A stretch of 64,000 nucleotides of DNA from an uncultured virus (IMG/VR IMGVR_UViG_3300037322_000284) (IMGVR_UViG_3300037322_000284); one strand, 5' to 3'. Positions 17,591 to 32,143 are shown, counted from the first letter of the stretch. Program-made: numbers and translations. The notes: generated by a model not told the origin, from the sequence alone.

Positions 17591-17741
17591 AAAATTATGA
17601 ACAGTTGCTATTTAGAAACCGTATAAATAGCAATCTCTTTTACTTTTTCTATTGTGAGCTTAGGATTAATTGTTATCTTTGTATAAAATAAATCTGTTTT
17701 TTACCTTTTTTCGGCGAAAATTAACAATAAAAATAATAATT

Positions 17742-18005
17742 ATGTCAGGACACTTAACAAGAGAAGAAAAAGACCATTGGAAAGAATCAGTTATAAACTC
17801 AAGGTTTGAGGATTTTAAAGAATTGAAAGGTTGGTTAATATTAAAAAATATTAATTTTAGTGAAAATAATTTTGGAATTGAATTACAAGATTTTAATATT
17901 AGTAACACTTTAAAAATAAAATTTCCAAATACGAGAAAAGAGTATCAATACAACATTGATGGTATAAAAGAAAGATTAAAAAATAATTATGAAAATAGAA
18001 TTTAA
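17742..18005 (+). CDS. hypothetical protein
   Basis: Probable start MSGHL after promoter 17674. Confidence 0.6.
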   Translation: MSGHLTREEKDHWKESVINSRFEDFKELKGWLILKNINFSENNFGIELQDFNISNTLKIKFPNTRKEYQYNIDGIKERLKNNYENRI

Positions 18006-18252: not shown

Positions 18253-18464
18253 TGTACCGCCACTTTACTAACTGCTATATGTAAACAACAATACAATTTA
18301 AAACTATGACAACATTAATAATACTTATTCTCATACTGGTTGTGGAGAATAGATTTAGCCCCAGACTTTCTTACGTAAAAGCTTCTAATATGCTCTTACT
18401 TTACTACACACATGGCACAACAAGAAAATATTTAATTCTCTGGAAAGAGACAAAATTTTAAAAA

Positions 18465-19519: not shown

Positions 19520-20432
19520 TTACCTACAGACAAAATTTCAATACTACCCAAGTGATATTAGAATTACAAAGCCTCTGGGGGATGTTAGTCTATATGAATA
19601 CTTAAAGGCTGTTAAACAACCGAAACCTCACATTTTAGAAACATTTAAAGAAATCGAAAGGGTTAGTTTAATTGGTGACTTGAAAACTAAAGCAGAGTTA
19701 AAAGCCAAACTCCCTTATTTTACTCCGTGTATTTATTCTAATGGAGAGGGGAGAAGTTATCAGCATATTGAAAGTTGGACAGGGTTAATGATAGTTGATA
19801 TAGACGGTTTAGATATTGAATTTGCCAAAGAGTTTAAAGAATATCTGTTCAATACTTATCCATTTTTTATTGCGGTTTTTTTGTCAGCCTCAAAGAAAGG
19901 TATTAAAGTTATTGTGAAAATTCCTATATGTAAAAGTACGGACGAATTTAAAGCTTACTTTTACGGTTTAATGGTAGAATTTCAGCATTATAGAGGAATA
20001 GATTTCACCAGCAAAAACTCAGCTTTGGCGAACTATTTAACATACGACACAGAGTTGTTATATAGATTAGATGCAACTACTTGGAATAAAAGAGGTTTAC
20101 AGTTGGACGAGTTTCAGGTTTACGAGGGCGAAATAGAAACAGTGGAGAACCCTTCGGAAGAAGATATTTATGAAATTAAAAGAATAATTAAAGGTATCTT
20201 TTCTAAAATTACAGATTCAGGTCACATATTTGTTAGAAATGGCTCTCTAGTTGGGGGTGGATATATTTCTGCGGGTTATATAGAATATGATGATATGAAA
20301 GACTTTTTATTAGATTTGATAGATAATACAGAATATTTACAAAAGTCCCTTAAAACGTATAAAACGACTTGTTTAGATATGTTACGCCGAGGAATGATGT
20401 CACCAATTTATTTGCGCAAAGATGAAAAATAA
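19512..20432 (+). CDS. BT4734/VirE-N-type primase-polymerase (AEP)
   Basis: LKAKLPYFTP, TGLMIVDID, FLSASKKGIK, LTYD. Confidence 0.8.
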   Translation: MSDYLQTKFQYYPSDIRITKPLGDVSLYEYLKAVKQPKPHILETFKEIERVSLIGDLKTKAELKAKLPYFTPCIYSNGEGRSYQHIESWTGLMIVDIDGLDIEFAKEFKEYLFNTYPFFIAVFLSASKKGIKVIVKIPICKSTDEFKAYFYGLMVEFQHYRGIDFTSKNSALANYLTYDTELLYRLDATTWNKRGLQLDEFQVYEGEIETVENPSEEDIYEIKRIIKGIFSKITDSGHIFVRNGSLVGGGYISAGYIEYDDMKDFLLDLIDNTEYLQKSLKTYKTTCLDMLRRGMMSPIYLRKDEK

Positions 20433-20569
20433 AGAATACTTTTTAAGAAAAGATAATTTCAAGATTAAATACATGCCTTTATGTAATTTAACACAATTTC
20501 CACAAAAAATACTTGCACAAAAAGATATTAAACCATATCTTAGCAGAATAGAAATTAGAGAAAAATAAA

Positions 20570-21016
20570 ATGGAAGAAAACAAAATAAAACTTTTCGCCA
20601 AGCAAATAAAGTGTGATGAAAAGTTAGCAGAAAATGAAGTGTTTGTAGAGTTTGATGTAGAAGAGTTGCTAGATCAAATTGAACATAAAGATATTACTGC
20701 TTATGCTAAAATGTGGTGTAACTTAATTTCTCACGAAGAAATAGATTTATCAGATTTTAGTGAGGAAGAATTGGTGACAGCTTTACAAAACATGGGATTT
20801 GATTTTATTTCCGAAGTGGATACCGAAGATATGATAGATGCTATTGAAAGTGACGGATATGAAGTTACCTTAGAAAATGTAGTACTTGACGAGGATTTAG
20901 ACCACACAGACAAACAAATGCTAGATCAAATAGTTAATAAATTCCAAGGTAGTAGTTGGGGAGATAGGGAAGAAATGTATAAAAATTTGATGGTTTTGAA
21001 AGATTTTAAATTATAA
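20570..21016 (+). CDS. highly acidic hypothetical protein
   Basis: 148 aa, D/E-rich with repeated E-L/M-x-x-A-L/I..G-F/Y units. Confidence 0.7.
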   Translation: MEENKIKLFAKQIKCDEKLAENEVFVEFDVEELLDQIEHKDITAYAKMWCNLISHEEIDLSDFSEEELVTALQNMGFDFISEVDTEDMIDAIESDGYEVTLENVVLDEDLDHTDKQMLDQIVNKFQGSSWGDREEMYKNLMVLKDFKL

Positions 21017-21125
21017 CCCCAATCAAGAACACCCTTTAGCTTGAAATTGTTAAACAGGTATTTGGAAGGAGGAAGGGAATTCAATATTTAGAAAATGGAT
21101 TTACAGAATTAATTTGCCCTAAATG

Positions 21126-21251
21126 TACGTTCCGCATATCTTGTGCTGTTACCGATGTGACACAAAATAATAATTTAATTAAACGGGATAATCCCAAACA
21201 CAAAACAATAACAACCAAAGCCTAATACGGTAATAGCTCAAATATGCTGTT
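21126..21251. repeat. attC-like hairpin 1 (degenerate left end)
   Basis: TAC-GTTCC-GCATATCTTGTGCTGTTACCG (21134-54) pairs with CGGTAATAGCTCAAATATGC-T-GTT (21228-51). Confidence 0.7.
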
Positions 21252-21281
21252 ATCACTGCGGTTTTTTATCCCACAACACAA

Positions 21282-21473
21282 ATGAAAACATTTAAAAAAA
21301 TTATCGGATACTTAATTGTATCACTTTTCGCAATAATGATAATATGCTGTTTTGCTTATAATATCTATCAAACTGGTTGGTACTTCATGCTACCCCTAGT
21401 TATTATTTTAGCTTTAGTTGGATTACTTATTTTTGGACTTCGTCTTTTAAGCGACAACGACCAAGCTGAGTGA
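21282..21473 (+). CDS. Cassette 1: small two-TM membrane protein
   Basis: 63 aa with two hydrophobic helices; stop codon lies inside AGTGACAAC. Confidence 0.75.
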   Translation: MKTFKKIIGYLIVSLFAIMIICCFAYNIYQTGWYFMLPLVIILALVGLLIFGLRLLSDNDQAE

Positions 21474-21474
21474 C

Positions 21475-21598
21475 AACGTCCGAGTGCTTGGCGAAGAAGC
21501 GGACTTATGAAAATTATATTTTCAGAAAACAATAAACGCAATTAGAATTACAAAACTTGAATTATAAACTGAACCCGCTTTTTTGCCAAACACTTGTT
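21475..21598. repeat. attC-like hairpin 2
   Basis: AAC-GTCC-GAGTGCTTGGCGAAGAAGCGG (21482-502) pairs with CCGCTTTTTTGCCAAACACTT-GTT (21575-98). Confidence 0.85.
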
Positions 21599-21632
21599 AT
21601 GTGATGAACGGGTTTTAACAACTAAATTAATT

Positions 21633-21935
21633 ATGAAACAATTAGCATCTATTAGAACAAATTTGAGCTTTTCAGTTGAAACAGGAACTACTGAATTAAA
21701 ACCGACAATTGAAATAGTATTGTTGACTTATAAGCCTGAATATTCATTTAATGCAAAAAGTGAAATTCAGCAAAAAAGAGCATTAGACGAAACAAGATTG
21801 ATATTAAGTACTGAAGGACTAAATCAAATGATTGCAAACTTACAATTATCTCTTGCTCAACTTCAACAATATGAACAAATGGGCGTTGCTTTAAATAACG
21901 TTATCAAGGCAATGAAAGTTGATGAAAAACCGTAA
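21633..21935 (+). CDS. Cassette 2: hypothetical protein (100 aa)
   Basis: Probable start MKQLA after A-rich leader, inside the cassette boundaries. Confidence 0.75.
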   Translation: MKQLASIRTNLSFSVETGTTELKPTIEIVLLTYKPEYSFNAKSEIQQKRALDETRLILSTEGLNQMIANLQLSLAQLQQYEQMGVALNNVIKAMKVDEKP

Positions 21936-21951
21936 ATATAGTTTATCACAT

Positions 21952-22037
21952 AACGGTTGGGTGTATGAGAAGGTTTGCTTAGATGAACTTTCAAATTACC
22001 ACAAATGTTGACAGCAAACTTTCTTATACACCTTGTT
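21952..22037. repeat. attC-like hairpin 3
   Basis: AAC-GGTT-GGGTGTATGAGAAGGTTTGCT (21959-79) pairs with AGCAAACTTTCTTATACACCT-T-GTT (22013-37). Confidence 0.85.
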
Positions 22038-22078
22038 ATATTTAGGTTTGTTTTTGTTTTACCGATTAAAAAAATGAT

Positions 22079-22450
22079 ATGAAAATAGAAAAAGTACATA
22101 ACAAAATTAGATATACACTATCTAACGAAAATCTTAAAGTTAGTGATGAAGTATTTCCAATAGCAAGAGGAAGATGTTTAGATGATGATGATGGATGGAT
22201 ATTACACGATTTAGATTTTCGTGATTTTATGAGTGGTTTTCCTGATGACCCACATATTATAATGGACTTGAATTATGACAATGGGAAACAAGGAAAGGCA
22301 TATCAAGTAAGAACTGATAATGGATATTCACCGATTGAGTGTTACTACAAAATTGTCAAAATAGAAGAAAAGATTAAAGTTAAGGAAAATATATTTGGTG
22401 GTTCTTACGAGTGGGTTGAAATAAAAAACTCAAAACAAAAACAAACTTGA
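22079..22450 (+). CDS. Cassette 3: hypothetical protein (123 aa)
   Basis: Bracketed by a 26-bp inverted repeat (23/26). Confidence 0.75.
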   Translation: MKIEKVHNKIRYTLSNENLKVSDEVFPIARGRCLDDDDGWILHDLDFRDFMSGFPDDPHIIMDLNYDNGKQGKAYQVRTDNGYSPIECYYKIVKIEEKIKVKENIFGGSYEWVEIKNSKQKQT

Positions 22451-22490
22451 ATATAGCTAATATTTGTGTGAATAATCTATAACCATTAAC
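22451..22490. other. Candidate attI-like primary recombination site
   Basis: Cassette 3 repeat ends at ATATAGC (22457) with no hairpin after it; CTATAAC at 22477-83; 51 bp upstream of the integrase. Confidence 0.45.
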
Positions 22491-22508
22491 AAAATCAACA
22501 TATAAGCC

Positions 22509-23312
22509 ATGAATATTCCTAAATACCTCGAAATGTATCGGAAAGACTTAATTTTAAAAAATTACTCTCACAACACGATAAAAAACTATGTCTATCAAGC
22601 AGATTTATTTTTAAGACATCAAGAAAAAGAGTTTACAGAACCATCAAAAGTAAACGAACAAGCAATTAAAAATTGGTTATTGCAATTCAAAACCAGAAAT
22701 GCAATGTGTCATTCATTATCTGCTTTAAAGTTGTTTTATAAAATGACAATTAAGCAACCAAGGAAGTTTCGTTATATTGAATACCCTCGCTCAGAAAAGA
22801 AGCTTCCAAGAATAATTGATAAGTCTTTTCTACTTGATTGTATTTCTAAAATAACAAACACTAAACACAAGGCTGTAATATCACTAGCATATTCAACAGG
22901 GATGAGAGTTTCAGAAGTTTGTAATTTAAAAATATCTGGCATTGACAGTAAAAGAATGGTAATCTCTATTAGACAGTCTAAAGGTAGAAAAGATAGAATC
23001 GTCGCTTTATCCGAGAAGATTTTAGTAATTCTCAGAGTTTATTTTTTAGAGTACAAACCTAAAGAATATTTATTTAATGGTCAATTTACGCAACAATATT
23101 CAACTACAAGTTGCAATCAAATTGTTAAAAAATACTTAGGTAAAGAATTTCACTTTCATCTTTTAAGGCACAGTAACGCCACAGCATTATTAGAAGCGGG
23201 TACGGATTTAAGGATTATTCAGAAACATCTTGGGCACTCAAGCTCAAAAACAACAGAAATATACACACACGTAAGCACTAATATTTTGCAATCAATGTCT
23301 TTACCCATTTAA
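22509..23312 (+). CDS. Tyrosine recombinase/integrase (SAM-like N-domain plus catalytic domain), no IntI I2 insertion
   Basis: YSHNTIKNY; YSTGMRVSE (R), KGRKDR (K), HLLRHS (HxxR), LGHSS (H), TEIYTH (Y). Confidence 0.95.
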   Translation: MNIPKYLEMYRKDLILKNYSHNTIKNYVYQADLFLRHQEKEFTEPSKVNEQAIKNWLLQFKTRNAMCHSLSALKLFYKMTIKQPRKFRYIEYPRSEKKLPRIIDKSFLLDCISKITNTKHKAVISLAYSTGMRVSEVCNLKISGIDSKRMVISIRQSKGRKDRIVALSEKILVILRVYFLEYKPKEYLFNGQFTQQYSTTSCNQIVKKYLGKEFHFHLLRHSNATALLEAGTDLRIIQKHLGHSSSKTTEIYTHVSTNILQSMSLPI

Positions 23313-23468
23313 AACTATTGTGACCCTAATAATAATTTTCTTTTTTATCAAAAATATAAACCAAACTTAGAATACTTAAAATAATCTAATACCCTAATTT
23401 TACATTATTATTTTAGAAACATTAGGGTATATATAAAATTTAAACTACCTTTGTAAAAACTAAACGAT

Positions 23469-23627
23469 ATGGACGGAACGAAATGCGAGGGGACTAATTG
23501 CCCCCTAAAAGAAAAGTGTTATAGATACACTGCAAAAGCAAATGAATATTATCAAAGTTATTTCACTGAGATTCCTTATGATTTTAAAACTAAAAAATGT
23601 GAATATTTATGGAAGCGGAAAACTTAA
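23469..23627 (+). CDS. small Cys-rich phage protein (52 aa)
   Basis: MDGTKCEGTNCPLKEKCYRYTA...QSY...CEY, read by eye after promoter 23446. Confidence 0.65.
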   Translation: MDGTKCEGTNCPLKEKCYRYTAKANEYYQSYFTEIPYDFKTKKCEYLWKRKT

Positions 23628-23845
23628 TAGATTGGTTAGTTAAATTAGACATTGCATTCTACGTCACTACAAAAGAAGTAGACTATGACCCTAAATGTAA
23701 ATCTCACTTGTATTTGAGGGGTTCGCCCGAAAGATTCTCAGGTGCGGATATTATATCTATTTTTGAGAACAAAGCAACTGACGAGATAAACGAAAATTGG
23801 CAATATGCAATTGCCGACCATAACGCATATTTAAAAAGACGTTAA
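23609..23845 (+). CDS. hypothetical protein
   Basis: 78-aa ORF. Confidence 0.6.
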   Translation: MEAENLIDWLVKLDIAFYVTTKEVDYDPKCKSHLYLRGSPERFSGADIISIFENKATDEINENWQYAIADHNAYLKRR

Positions 23846-23847
23846 TT

Positions 23848-24270
23848 ATGGATAAAATATATAAAAAATTAGGTAAAAGGTACGTGGAAGTAGAGCCACA
23901 AAGATTTAAAATAGATTTTTTTGAATTTGCTTTTCTAGTAGAAGCCTGCGTACCAAAACGCCCTATCGCAAGAGCAATGTTTTTTCATAACGTAATTGAT
24001 AAGTACTATTATGAAATGACCTCCGAGGAAAGAGAAAGACTGTTTGAGTGGGTAAACAGGCATAGTGGTTTTCAAGACAGCTTGGAAAAGAATAATGAAG
24101 ATTGTATAGCTTTTAATGCGAGGTTTGATAAAGATAACCAATACTTGGTCTCTACCTTTTTTGCCGAAAAAGAAGGTAAAACAGAAACTTTTAAAATGGG
24201 AGAAAGATATCACACTTCAATAAGCACAAGTGTAAACGAAGAATACATAACTAAAATAGAAAAATTATAA
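23848..24270 (+). CDS. hypothetical protein
   Basis: 140-aa ORF. Confidence 0.7.
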   Translation: MDKIYKKLGKRYVEVEPQRFKIDFFEFAFLVEACVPKRPIARAMFFHNVIDKYYYEMTSEERERLFEWVNRHSGFQDSLEKNNEDCIAFNARFDKDNQYLVSTFFAEKEGKTETFKMGERYHTSISTSVNEEYITKIEKL

Positions 24271-30702: not shown

Positions 30703-32143
30703 ATATGAATCTTCCTTTTACGTGGACTATACCTCGAAATATTTCTGTTGCGGTGTTTGTACCTATTGGAACGTTTAATATTACACTCAGAATCCTACCA
30801 CTTTCTGTTACTTCTGGCGTATCGAAGGTTATGTCTATTCTATTTGCTTGCGCACCAACGGGAGCTCCTACTGCCAATGATTGAATACCTACAGTCTGCC
30901 TAATAATGTTGGCGGTGGCTAAAGATACAGCAACTGAATTAAAACCCATACCCCACTCAAATAATGTAGGTGTTGTGGCAACTGGTACCACTGTATTATA
31001 AGTTTCTATTACAACACCCTCGCAAATAAACCTACTACCTACAGGGACAGTGAAACCAAATAAGCAATAATCTGTCGCTGCGCCCACAGGAGCAGCAAAT
31101 TGAAATTTACCACCTAAAGTAGTATATCCCGCAGCTGTATTTGAAAGTGTTGCTGATACAGGGGCTAATGAGTTTGTAAAGTTTTCTAACTGAGCTCCCG
31201 TAAAAGGGTGTCTACCACTAGATAGAGCTAGTAACCCAGCTAATTGAGAAATATTATTTCCTGAATTCCAATCAGTTGTTAAAACTTGTATGTACCCTAA
31301 TGTTAAAATTGGTGCTATAGAAGGTGCAACTGAACTATTCCAAACTCTTACATAAGTAGGTAATGCTGTAGCTCCCCACATGGCTAATGATGATAGTGGT
31401 ACAATAACAGTAGCTTTCCCAACAAATTCTCCAGTAGTTGTATCTTGAACTGTTATAATAGCATTATCATCATCTACAATAATGTCTACTACATAGAACT
31501 CAGAGTTTGTATTTGCTGTGGAAAGTTGTGTAATACCATCACTTCCTAAAATTGGTATCGGTGTCGCAAGTTCAGTATTATTAAATGTTAAAACTGAGTA
31601 CCACAAGCCGCTTATGATTCTAACAGCAATACCATTTGGTACTAAAATATTATTAGTTGTTGGTATACCAAAACCAAAATCAGCATTTGAGTTTGTACCA
31701 ATACTAGCTCTTACTCTTAATTTAACTTGTAAAGGTATTCTAGGGTGTTTATAAAACAACCTTTGAGATTGTAAAATTGATACAGCATTTGCCGAAAGTA
31801 AGTTAGTATTGTTAAAATTATAACCCCCTGTTGTAGTTTGAGCTGGTACAAAAGTTGTACTCTGAGCTACCCATTTTTGAGCGTTTAGAACTGTACCTTC
31901 AAAGTTCTCTAATAGTTCAGGATTATAATTACCTGTAATAATATTACCTTTTCTATCAGTTCTAATGATAGTTGCTACATCATCATTCTTACCTGCTATA
32001 AGTAAAGATTCTTGTGAAGCATTAATAGGATCTCTTTGTCTTTTAGAAATACTGTTTCCTGCGCTATCTTTCAGTTTAACTTGTAAATTATTTTGGCTAT
32101 CTACATTAGCCTTAAACCCATCTAATCCGTCTACTAGTGGCAT
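30701..32143 (-). CDS. Putative virion structural/tail-associated beta-rich protein
   Basis: 480 aa, T/G/A/V-rich, in the structural module. Confidence 0.6.
   Translation of the reverse strand: MPLVDGLDGFKANVDSQNNLQVKLKDSAGNSISKRQRDPINASQESLLIAGKNDDVATIIRTDRKGNIITGNYNPELLENFEGTVLNAQKWVAQSTTFVPAQTTTGGYNFNNTNLLSANAVSILQSQRLFYKHPRIPLQVKLRVRASIGTNSNADFGFGIPTTNNILVPNGIAVRIISGLWYSVLTFNNTELATPIPILGSDGITQLSTANTNSEFYVVDIIVDDDNAIITVQDTTTGEFVGKATVIVPLSSLAMWGATALPTYVRVWNSSVAPSIAPILTLGYIQVLTTDWNSGNNISQLAGLLALSSGRHPFTGAQLENFTNSLAPVSATLSNTAAGYTTLGGKFQFAAPVGAATDYCLFGFTVPVGSRFICEGVVIETYNTVVPVATTPTLFEWGMGFNSVAVSLATANIIRQTVGIQSLAVGAPVGAQANRIDITFDTPEVTESGRILSVILNVPIGTNTATEIFRGIVHVKGRFI

Follow-up and report, generated by a model that had tools for sequence, protein, structure and literature searches.

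The region considered here spans positions 21126-23312 of a 64,000-nucleotide (nt) stretch of DNA from an uncultured virus (IMG/VR IMGVR_UViG_3300037322_000284), the whole of which is called the window below. The window is AT-rich, with about 31% GC, and phage in origin: its + strand carries genes for a ribonucleotide reductase, a thymidylate synthase, a DnaB-like helicase, a family A DNA polymerase and a primase-like protein, and very large virion proteins and a lytic tail protein are encoded on the - strand. Judged by recombinase similarity, the nearest cultured phages (32-34% identity) have Cellulophaga and Polaribacter as hosts; a DNA search of the phage collection with window positions 20000-24000 gave no match. 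Within 21126-23312 lie three hairpins, three small + strand genes and the gene for a tyrosine recombinase of 267 amino acids (aa). Taken together, these parts probably make up an integron-like gene-capture module.

The list of open reading frames (ORFs) agrees with an initial annotation of this DNA in placing one small gene after each hairpin. Hairpin site 1 (21126-21253, + strand), the farthest from the recombinase gene, carries a loop of about 75 nt on a stem of about 21 bp that contains 3 mismatches; behind it comes the gene of cassette A (21282-21473, + strand), which encodes a hydrophobic protein of 63 aa and has its stop codon 1 nt before the next AAC core. Hairpin site 2 (21475-21600, + strand), with a 5-nt unpaired spacer, a stem of about 19 bp and a 72-nt loop, is followed by the 100-aa gene of cassette B (21633-21935, + strand), the whole cassette being 21475-21951. 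Hairpin site 3 (21952-22039, + strand) combines a 21-bp stem containing G.T pairs with a 33-nt loop and precedes the 123-aa gene of cassette C (22079-22450, + strand), which stops 4 nt before the core on the recombinase side. That core, TAGC at 22455-22458, followed by TAATATTTGTG, marks an attI-like site, which together with the recombinase leader occupies 22451-22508 (+ strand). As annotated, the array ends 51 nt from the ATG of the recombinase gene (22509-23312, + strand), whose product has intact catalytic residues.

Hairpin sites and their link to the recombinase gene

Both the cores read off the sequence and a covariance model place the three hairpins where they had been annotated. Hairpin 1 has a degenerate left core, GTAC at 21126-21129, one A short of TAAC, and GTTAT on the right, with GTT at 21249-21251. 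The left core of hairpin 2 is CAAC (AAC at 21475-21477) and that of hairpin 3 is TAAC (AAC at 21952-21954), each with GTTAT on the right (GTT at 21596-21598 and 22035-22037). An unpaired spacer, also part of the initial description, is indeed found after the left core of each hairpin (4-5 nt), with 1-2 nt before the right core. The stem of hairpin 2 includes one C.A pair and two G.T pairs.

In a gapless stem scan of the whole window, with 24 stems listed, hairpin 3 came first (19.5) and hairpin 2 joint second (18.0), a score shared by an unrelated 47-nt repeat at 17636-17773; hairpin 1 fell under the threshold. Folded as DNA, the + strands of hairpins 1, 2 and 3 reach -12.6, -18.9 and -16.8 kcal/mol (z-scores -1.67, -3.58 and -4.65), and the - strand is less stable in all three (-11.2, -14.8 and -12.5 kcal/mol). 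None of 200 shuffles of hairpin 2 was as stable as its + strand fold. With a z-score of only -1.67, hairpin 1 on its own does not go beyond chance by folding energy.

R1, a covariance model trained on 47 sites (hairpin 2 and 46 from related contigs), was run over either strand of the 64 kb. With E<=10 as the limit, it matched exactly the three hairpins: hairpin 2 at 21468-21605 (97.6 bits, a site in the training set), hairpin 3 at 21945-22044 (55.1 bits, E 1.6e-8, a site outside it) and hairpin 1 at 21120-21258 (47.6 bits). Hairpin 1 is the weakest of the three and lacks one A of the left core, yet it is matched with E 4.5e-7.

On the 47 aligned sites RNAalifold predicted 24 pairs, consisting of five core pairs (TAACG with TGTTA, the last being G.T), then a four-base bulge on the left only and then a 19-bp stem. 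Changes on both sides are seen in 18 of these 24 pairs. Of the cells, 94.8% are paired, against 64.5% in shuffles (none of 500 reached the observed value) and 34-47% with the partner shifted along; this percentage, and part of the excess of G.U over C.A among the predicted pairs (134 vs 8), is inflated because the sites were picked for having a stem, a 16-bp stem being required and G.T scored as half a match. One stem position is G.T in 45/47 sites and the core pair is G.T in all 47; at one position an unpaired C stands opposite A. Sites of 120-129 nt (96/167) and of 80-89 nt (28/167) predominate, with loop classes of about 33 and 73 nt. The core consensus is yTAAC on the left and GTTAk on the right, and with its imperfect hairpin, unpaired spacer and variable loop the site has the architecture of an attC site (RYYYAAC...GTTRRRY). 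No attC-like extrahelical bases were seen in the aligned sites.

A fairer and independent control is the enrichment by strand and position under an identical scan rule, namely AAC, a 16-bp stem with at most 2 mismatches, and GTT. It was applied to 80 viral-contig loci (L001-L080) that carry recombinase homologues 49-88% identical to that of the window, and returned 183 sites on the recombinase strand vs 36 on the other. On the + strand, 148 sites fell in 179 kb lying within 3.5 kb upstream of the recombinase gene vs 14 in 450 kb downstream, that is 8.3 vs 0.31 per 10 kb, an enrichment of about 27-fold. R1 at E<=1e-3 gave 168 matches in 86 loci, all on the recombinase strand; 158 of the 161 matches in L001-L080 lie upstream of the recombinase gene, and the remaining three form a second group, downstream in L073. 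Among loci with at least 1 kb of upstream DNA, 50/53 have at least one site and 38/53 at least two, with a maximum of eight. The lack of linkage between integrase and hairpins that would have told against the initial annotation is thus not what these loci show.

The genes neighbouring the window's recombinase gene have no homologue in the 80 loci, save for one cassette gene, which is sited elsewhere there. Recombinase gene, site and array hence travel together across unrelated phage backbones.

The ~124-nt sites have long loops with common A-rich motifs near the 3' end (ACAAA ... TTAAATTAAAcc, alignment columns 85-112), of which hairpin 2 carries a version at 21551-21572. These motifs may act as a promoter, as a signal for translation or as a site where a protein binds.

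Cassette flanks, the attI-like site and mobility

Pairing of flanks across the gene is a hallmark of integron cassettes, and it is pronounced here. The right flank of a site is a perfect 5-nt complement of the left flank of the following site in 79/107 cases (mean 4.32). By comparison, a site's own two flanks are perfect complements in 4/166 (mean 2.25 of 5), and random pairs of flanks in 6/166 (mean 2.35 of 5). The last right flank matches the flank at the attI-like site in 5 of 5 positions in 34/48 loci. All three cassettes of the window follow this rule: GTTATCAC after hairpin 1 faces GTGACAAC before hairpin 2 (cassette A, 7/8 matching), GTTATGTGA after hairpin 2 faces TCACATAAC before hairpin 3 (cassette B, 9/9), and GTTATATT after hairpin 3 faces AATATAGC at the attI-like site (cassette C, 7/8). 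The sequence following a core therefore pairs with the next cassette's own inverse core, as the cassette structure of integrons has it. Complementary flanks specific to each cassette are predicted by a circular intermediate closed at the core. Comparison shows that what is exchanged is a unit bounded by two successive AAC cores and closed by a cassette-specific inverted repeat (GTTAxxxx ... xxxxTAAC).

When the 130 nt upstream of the recombinase genes are aligned, the sequence is unrelated up to TAAC and conserved from there to the ATG. The fixed site of the relatives thus reads TAAC followed by the consensus TAyTATATGTA, about 51-56 nt before the ATG. At least five contigs (L001, L003, L005, L045 and L047) start exactly at this TAAC core, and assemblies are expected to break where a constant part meets variable parts. 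Like an attI site, the fixed site of the relatives adjoins the recombinase gene and is an entry point of cassettes, as an insertion in the cultured phage Freya_10 illustrates (see below). In one metagenome contig a close relative of the window reads TAAGC at the fixed site, and the cassette next to it is a different one. The window contains another attI-like motif, TAACTGCTATATGTAAA, between genes at 18268-18284, 4.2 kb farther upstream; with 1 mismatch in 15 it fits the consensus better than the copy on the recombinase side, and it is followed by a 51-aa ORF rather than by a recombinase gene. No hairpin site or complementary flank was found nearby upstream of it on the + strand.

The clearest case of a shared cassette came from a search with the 100-aa protein of cassette B, which led to L082, where a 496-bp match has 99.6% identity to window 21475-21970. 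The two are 100% identical over 21475-21959, starting at the first A of the AAC of hairpin 2, and the 8.3-kb locus of L082 has no other similarity to the window. To the left of the AAC the sequences are unrelated, and to the right stand two different hairpins. Given where this alignment starts and ends, the unit is a hairpin with its downstream gene, from AAC core to AAC core. Directly upstream of the cassette in common with the window, L082 (3750-3842) also has a minimal 47-nt hairpin site followed by a nearly empty unit (GTTAGGCG, about 20 nt, CGCCTAAC).

Parts of the window's cassettes have relatives in a variety of contexts. In L084 a homologue of the 100-aa gene stands as a cassette after another type of hairpin, and the recombinase encoded downstream is 42% identical to that of the window; further homologues in L083 and L085 are without hairpins. 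A 62%-identical relative of the 123-aa gene is found in L086, and the hairpin 3 type recurs at 90-95% identity in L068, L075 and L079, adjoining unrelated genes. An all-against-all DNA comparison of 80 arrays gave five common stretches of at least 200 bp, too few for breakpoint statistics.

Contigs (rather than raw reads) of four public salt-lake metagenome runs were compared with window positions 20500-23500 at 90% likeness; parts of the array without contig cover are uninformative. One contig of run X1 matches 20500-21125 with 24 differences and is unlike the window beyond, and a second matches 22457-23500 with 8 differences after 520 unlike bases. Their divergence exactly at the borders of the array shows a close relative in which the flanks are kept and the array is not; in run X3 a contig likewise starts or diverges at 22457. 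Run X2 contains the stretch of the 123-aa gene (22040-22455) and that of the 63-aa gene (21234-21477, in another context), each between sequence unlike the window on both sides. Contig ends cluster at the cores, at 21125, 21475-21481, 21600-21603, 21947-21959, 22040 and 22455-22457.

In runs X2-X4 the summed contig depth over the hairpins (21510-21610 and 21914-22115) is 55-148 vs 3-12 over the flanking genes. Depth so far above that of the flanks means that the window's hairpin types occur in many copies or contexts in those metagenomes.

Cultured Polaribacter phages provide a comparison between near-identical genomes. In Freya_1 to Freya_10 the recombinase gene lies at shifting positions of the records, so Freya_10 and Freya_1 were compared across the record origin; they are 100% identical over 6,982 bp and 99.9% over 5,880 bp. 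Between these two stretches Freya_10 has an extra 4,922 bp of cassettes, at the core beside the recombinase gene. In Freya_1 the insertion point, 49 nt upstream of the recombinase gene, reads ...ATTGTTTACAAC|ACCCCTATAAC...; Freya_10 has ...TTTACAAC|GG and then a hairpin at the left junction, and ...TTGCTAAC|ACCCCTATAAC at the right one. The share of the Freya_10 array present in the other isolates rises from 1% in Freya_1-4 and 13% in Freya_5-7 to 78% in Freya_8 and 93% in Freya_9. Danklef phages, isolated on another host strain, have 38% of it at 97% identity.

Cassettes are thus found in different arrays in L082, L084, the Freya and Danklef phages and the metagenome contigs. Array content differs among relatives, metagenome contigs and Freya isolates, unlike the invariant gene content that had been named as grounds for abandoning the initial annotation. 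As far as comparison of sequences can show it, an identical cassette unit occurs in unrelated genomes, and in relatives new units appear exactly at the TAAC core on the recombinase side; that recombination brought them there is what we infer.

The outer border of the array offers a further observation. It cuts a small zinc-ribbon gene (21040-21126), of which YLENGFTELICPKC is kept before hairpin 1 begins; the cut gene has no usual start codon upstream in the window. In L172 (4872-5228) the 71-aa zinc-ribbon gene is intact and has behind it one hairpin site (73 bits) with one cassette gene, and in the close relative of run X1 the zinc-ribbon gene continues past 21125. The target reads AAATGTTGTAAA in L172, which suggests that the outermost cassette entered at a secondary, GTT-containing site.

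The recombinase and its place among known systems

The tyrosine recombinase is intact, as had been annotated: alignment with an annotated IntI shows R133, K158, H217, R220, H243 and Y252 all present. It matches the Pfam family Phage_integrase (1.2e-38) and, among PHROGs, phrog_1, which stands for general phage integrase families. The best NCBIfam match is XerA, at 173 bits under its cut-off of 220; XerC (149 vs 335) and XerD (144 vs 330) are likewise below theirs. The integron integrase model TIGR02249 gives 131 bits in two stretches vs a cut-off of 265, and PRK15417 gives 85 vs 435. In the PDB, the XerA structures 5hxy and 4a8e are matched in a single stretch each and IntI4 (2a3v) in two. Against an annotated phage-borne IntI, gaps of 23, 14 and 9 aa fall in the region of the IntI insertion, including the ALERKYP region. 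The protein thus lacks the insertion (the I2 helix region of the catalytic domain) that marks the IntI family and lies under every curated IntI and Xer cut-off, in agreement with its first description as non-IntI. No dif-like site was noticed on reading the region, where no dedicated dif search was made; neither a score above cut-off nor a dif-type site of action places the enzyme in the Xer family.

The likeness to classical integrons is extensive. Both have imperfect hairpins that vary in sequence and keep their structure, bounded by AAC and GTT and with an unpaired spacer above the core, and in both each cassette has its own complementary pair of core flanks. One fixed entry site, where new cassettes arrive, stands between the array and the adjoining recombinase gene, which is read in the direction leading away from the array; and the better-folding strand corresponds to the integron bottom strand. 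As in chromosomal integrons, related hairpin types are common to many cassettes.

Several features differ. The recombinase is without the IntI insertion and under every IntI and Xer cut-off. The cassette genes lie on the other strand and face the fixed site: the longest ORF has this + strand orientation in 100/106 cassettes, and likewise in all three of the window, whereas classical cassettes are promoterless and oriented away from attI, with a promoter at attI or in the integrase gene. The spacer is one-sided, 4-5 nt long at the left core and 0-2 nt at the right one. AttC sites carry extrahelical bases, in place of which fixed C.A and G.T mismatches seem to stand here. The gene start apparently lies inside the hairpin loop in 58/147 cassettes, and the host is a phage. 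The module would work like an integron and departs from the definition of one on two counts, the insertion in the integrase and the orientation of the cassettes.

Genes that face the fixed site cannot be expressed from a promoter located there, and they would therefore be read from upstream phage promoters. Sigma-70-like patterns are at chance level (19 vs 16.7 +/- 4.5) in a scan that does not cover Bacteroidota promoters. The median cassette unit is 507 bp, with the stop codon a median of 16 nt before the next core. In the 58 cassettes of related arrays just mentioned, it is the first start codon of the longest ORF (ATG in 47) that lies inside the loop, as in L016, with a site at 2334-2458 and an ORF at 2412-2708; with such a start, the right arm of the hairpin would encode the beginning of the protein. 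The three genes of the window all start after the hairpin.

Archaeal XerA and bacterial XerC/XerD are the nearest relatives of the enzyme in sequence and share its size and domain layout. Xer enzymes act on short double-stranded dif-like sites, whereas here the sites are 85-130-nt hairpins that form arrays and have flanks specific to each cassette.

Arrays of this kind are not limited to phages. A scan of one genome per species, with the recombinase alignment as query, supplied the best 80 matches (L088-L167). Among these, three alone exceed 60% identity (61-72%, all of them metagenome bins), and the rest are 38-47% identical, of the same length and mostly from Bacteroidota contigs. R1 finds 75 sites in 33 of these genome loci, 74 of them on the opposite strand and downstream of the recombinase gene. 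Chromosomal arrays (e.g. L113, L114, L143 and L153) occur in Flaviramulus, Seonamhaeicola, Flavobacterium, Winogradskyella and Pseudotamlana. They resemble the phage array in matching the same hairpin model, in obeying the flank rule (between consecutive sites of L113) and in having a fixed site of the type TAAC|TAGTATATATGTA, which in a Flavobacterium, seen from the array, reads AGTTGCTAAC|TAGTATATATGTA. Unlike in the phage array, the recombinase gene is inverted, so that its 3' end adjoins the fixed site, and in the one chromosomal cassette read (L113) the gene reads away from the fixed site, which is the classical integron direction. The initial proposal of a platform inside a Bacteroidota phage holds in that the array stands in phage DNA; it was too narrow in that related arrays exist in Bacteroidota chromosomes. 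For Bacteroidetes, the part of the IntegronFinder 2.0 paper available to us reports only empty integrases and one complete integron, in Salinibacter (PMC9024848).

Related sites have been recognised in phages before. As far as the available portion of that paper goes, clusters of attC sites without an integrase were described in virulent phages, including the Polaribacter phage P12002L, and were proposed to have been picked up from bacteria, with methyltransferase cargo; of the two P12002L sites tested, IntI1 recombined attC2 into attI1, and attC1 failed (Qi 2023, PMC9892861). In P12002L, where no integrase is annotated, our pattern scan detects sites built like those of the window on the - strand. 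Those clusters share with the window the kind of site, a Flavobacteriia phage as bearer and, in related arrays, orphan DNA methyltransferase cargo. They differ in that the same portion of the paper reports no recombinase or fixed site, whereas the window's array ends at a conserved site by a phage recombinase gene. The expectation that standard integron tools would miss such a system needs correcting: standard attC tools do find some such phage sites, and the clusters were then called integrase-less (Qi 2023, PMC9892861, as far as available). In the literature searched, subscription journals and supplements apart, no paper linked attC-like arrays to a phage-encoded recombinase without the IntI insertion.

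Mechanism, alternatives and cargo

A mechanism can be envisioned in which the three + strand cassettes, each a hairpin with its downstream gene and together ending at the attI-like site 51 nt before the recombinase gene, serve as units of exchange. The recombinase would cut at the AAC core, or within a base or two of it, on the folded + strand hairpin. Strand exchange with another hairpin would excise a cassette as a circle, and strand exchange with the attI-like site would insert it beside the recombinase gene. The + strand order of hairpin, gene, attI-like site and recombinase gene corresponds to a classical integron read along its bottom strand, which in integrons is the strand that recombines when folded, with the cut between A and C of the core. 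A + strand substrate fits the crossover at the 5' AAC core and the better folding of that strand, seen in the window's hairpins and, subject to the selection bias noted above, in the excess of G.T over C.A pairs, and the junctions between L082 and the window and in the Freya phages lie at the AAC core within a base or two.

Of the alternatives, the one that fares best is that the recombinase is an ordinary lysogeny integrase with an attP site, and that another enzyme, for example a host homologue, moves the cassettes of a phage that is a passive carrier of sites picked up from bacteria, as such clusters are read in Qi 2023 (PMC9892861); we consider this improbable. It draws on the match of the protein to general phage integrase families (phrog_1) and on the several viral contigs that begin exactly at the TAAC core, as the end of a prophage would. 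Bacteroidota chromosomes do encode homologues 38-47% identical with arrays of their own, and P12002L, L082 and L172 have sites without a recombinase gene in the DNA examined. Against this, the order and strand of array, site and recombinase gene are fixed in 50/53 loci across unrelated phage backbones, new Freya cassettes land at the recombinase-side site, and the last cassette flank pairs with the flank of the fixed site in 34/48 loci. The three genome matches above 60% identity among the best 80 are all metagenome bins, and no integrated copy of the phage type was seen. Roles in lysogeny and in cassette movement would in any case be compatible with each other. The paper describing the Freya phages takes such integrases as a sign of a temperate lifestyle, and the word "integron" is absent from the part of its text available (Bartlau 2021, PMC8776804).

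Less probable still is that the hairpins are RNA elements of a phage transcript, such as terminators or processing or stabilising stem-loops, with no relation to the recombinase. They do stand between co-directional genes, their coding strand folds better and is enriched in G.U, and attC sites are thought to contain weak terminators (Qi 2023, PMC9892861, in its available portion). Such a role is at odds with flanks that pair across the gene rather than across the hairpin, with an identical unit of hairpin and gene that ends exactly at AAC in an unrelated genome (L082) and with the Freya insertions at the core beside the recombinase gene. No terminator-like site was found on the hairpins (+ strand) and no U-tract after them, and terminator-like patterns are at chance level; no Rfam family was matched at threshold, the sole match, a snoRNA model, having E 0.76, far under threshold. 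The hairpins may have an additional RNA-level role.

Homologous recombination between shared hairpin linkers, shuffling genes with no site-specific enzyme, could find homology in hairpin types kept at 90-95% identity beside different genes and in contig depths of up to 148 vs 3-12, and is nonetheless very hard to credit: at their left junction the window and L082 have nothing in common beyond AAC, the stretch common to the Freya junctions is some 20 nt of core and cassette end to the left of the insertion point, with every junction precisely at the AAC core, breakpoints are not scattered within the ~120-nt hairpin but lie at the core, and cassette-specific complementary flanks are predicted by a core-closed circle and not by linker exchange.

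A number of observations weigh against a gene-capture module, or against its activity in the window, in addition to the preselection of the aligned sites. The window's own copy of the attI-like site (TAGC, then the sequence given above) is the most divergent one, with 4 mismatches in 15 from the consensus, and cores are off consensus at both ends of the array (TAGC at the attI-like site and GTAC in the outermost hairpin); the copy of the array in the window may be partly decayed and less active than those of its relatives, and yet the close relative that shares this variant site has another cassette next to it. There is no site in 3/53 of the loci with at least 1 kb upstream, and L082 and L172 have sites without a recombinase gene in the DNA examined. 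R1 with default filters matches no Freya or P12002L site and with filters off gives one solid match, in Freya_10; it covers the window's subfamily only, and the Freya recombinase is itself only about 33% identical to that of the window. The four metagenome runs yielded no recombination joint, excised circle or empty site in contigs, which cannot show excision joints. Finally, the recombinase is without an insertion regarded in the literature as essential to the recombination of folded single strands (Escudero 2020, PMC7790495, as far as its available text goes). The accessible part of another study describes the insertion as essential for integron function and as not fully conserved in an integron-like subgroup (Smyshlyaev 2021, PMC8138268).

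A broader proposal can be put forward, towards which we lean slightly: that this Xer-like recombinase lineage without I2 would be a second integron-type gene-capture lineage of Bacteroidota and their phages, recombining folded, single-stranded hairpins with a fixed site next to the recombinase gene, through which phages trade counter-defence genes, orphan methyltransferases for example. If so, either the I2 helix would not be required for recombination of hairpin sites, or the lineage would represent the state from which IntI-type integrons arose, and much of the gene exchange that takes place by cassettes would escape current integron surveys.

Integrons, the textbook example of gene capture in cassettes, are defined by one enzyme family, whose insertion is held to enable recombination of folded single strands. 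Here the same cassette logic would go with an insertion-less enzyme, in lytic-looking phages of marine and salt-lake Flavobacteriia as well as in Bacteroidota chromosomes, so that the need for the IntI insertion in the chemistry of hairpin sites becomes testable. Many flavobacterial phage "integrases" may not signal lysogeny. The cultured Polaribacter isolates, which differ only in their cassette arrays, open the system to laboratory study.

Phages would thereby gain a dedicated means of swapping small accessory genes, of which the nameable ones are mostly DNA-modification enzymes that blunt host restriction. In related arrays, 19/146 distinct cassette proteins of at least 60 aa match a Pfam family at E<=1e-5, and 12 of these 19 are DNA methyltransferases or Mom. 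Because Mom and orphan DNA methyltransferases make up most of the cargo that can be identified in the relatives, the system is likely to serve the rapid exchange of accessory genes, those for counter-defence among them. The window's own three cassette genes have no Pfam or PHROG family and no usable match in the protein atlas, where their best scores (0.85 and 0.82) lie in a range also reached by shuffled sequences.

Elsewhere in the window, the fourth-best stem score belongs to a 25-nt inverted repeat at 31387-31473, which is 84% complementary with a 37-nt loop, is without the AAC/GTT architecture and lies near a switch in gene orientation.

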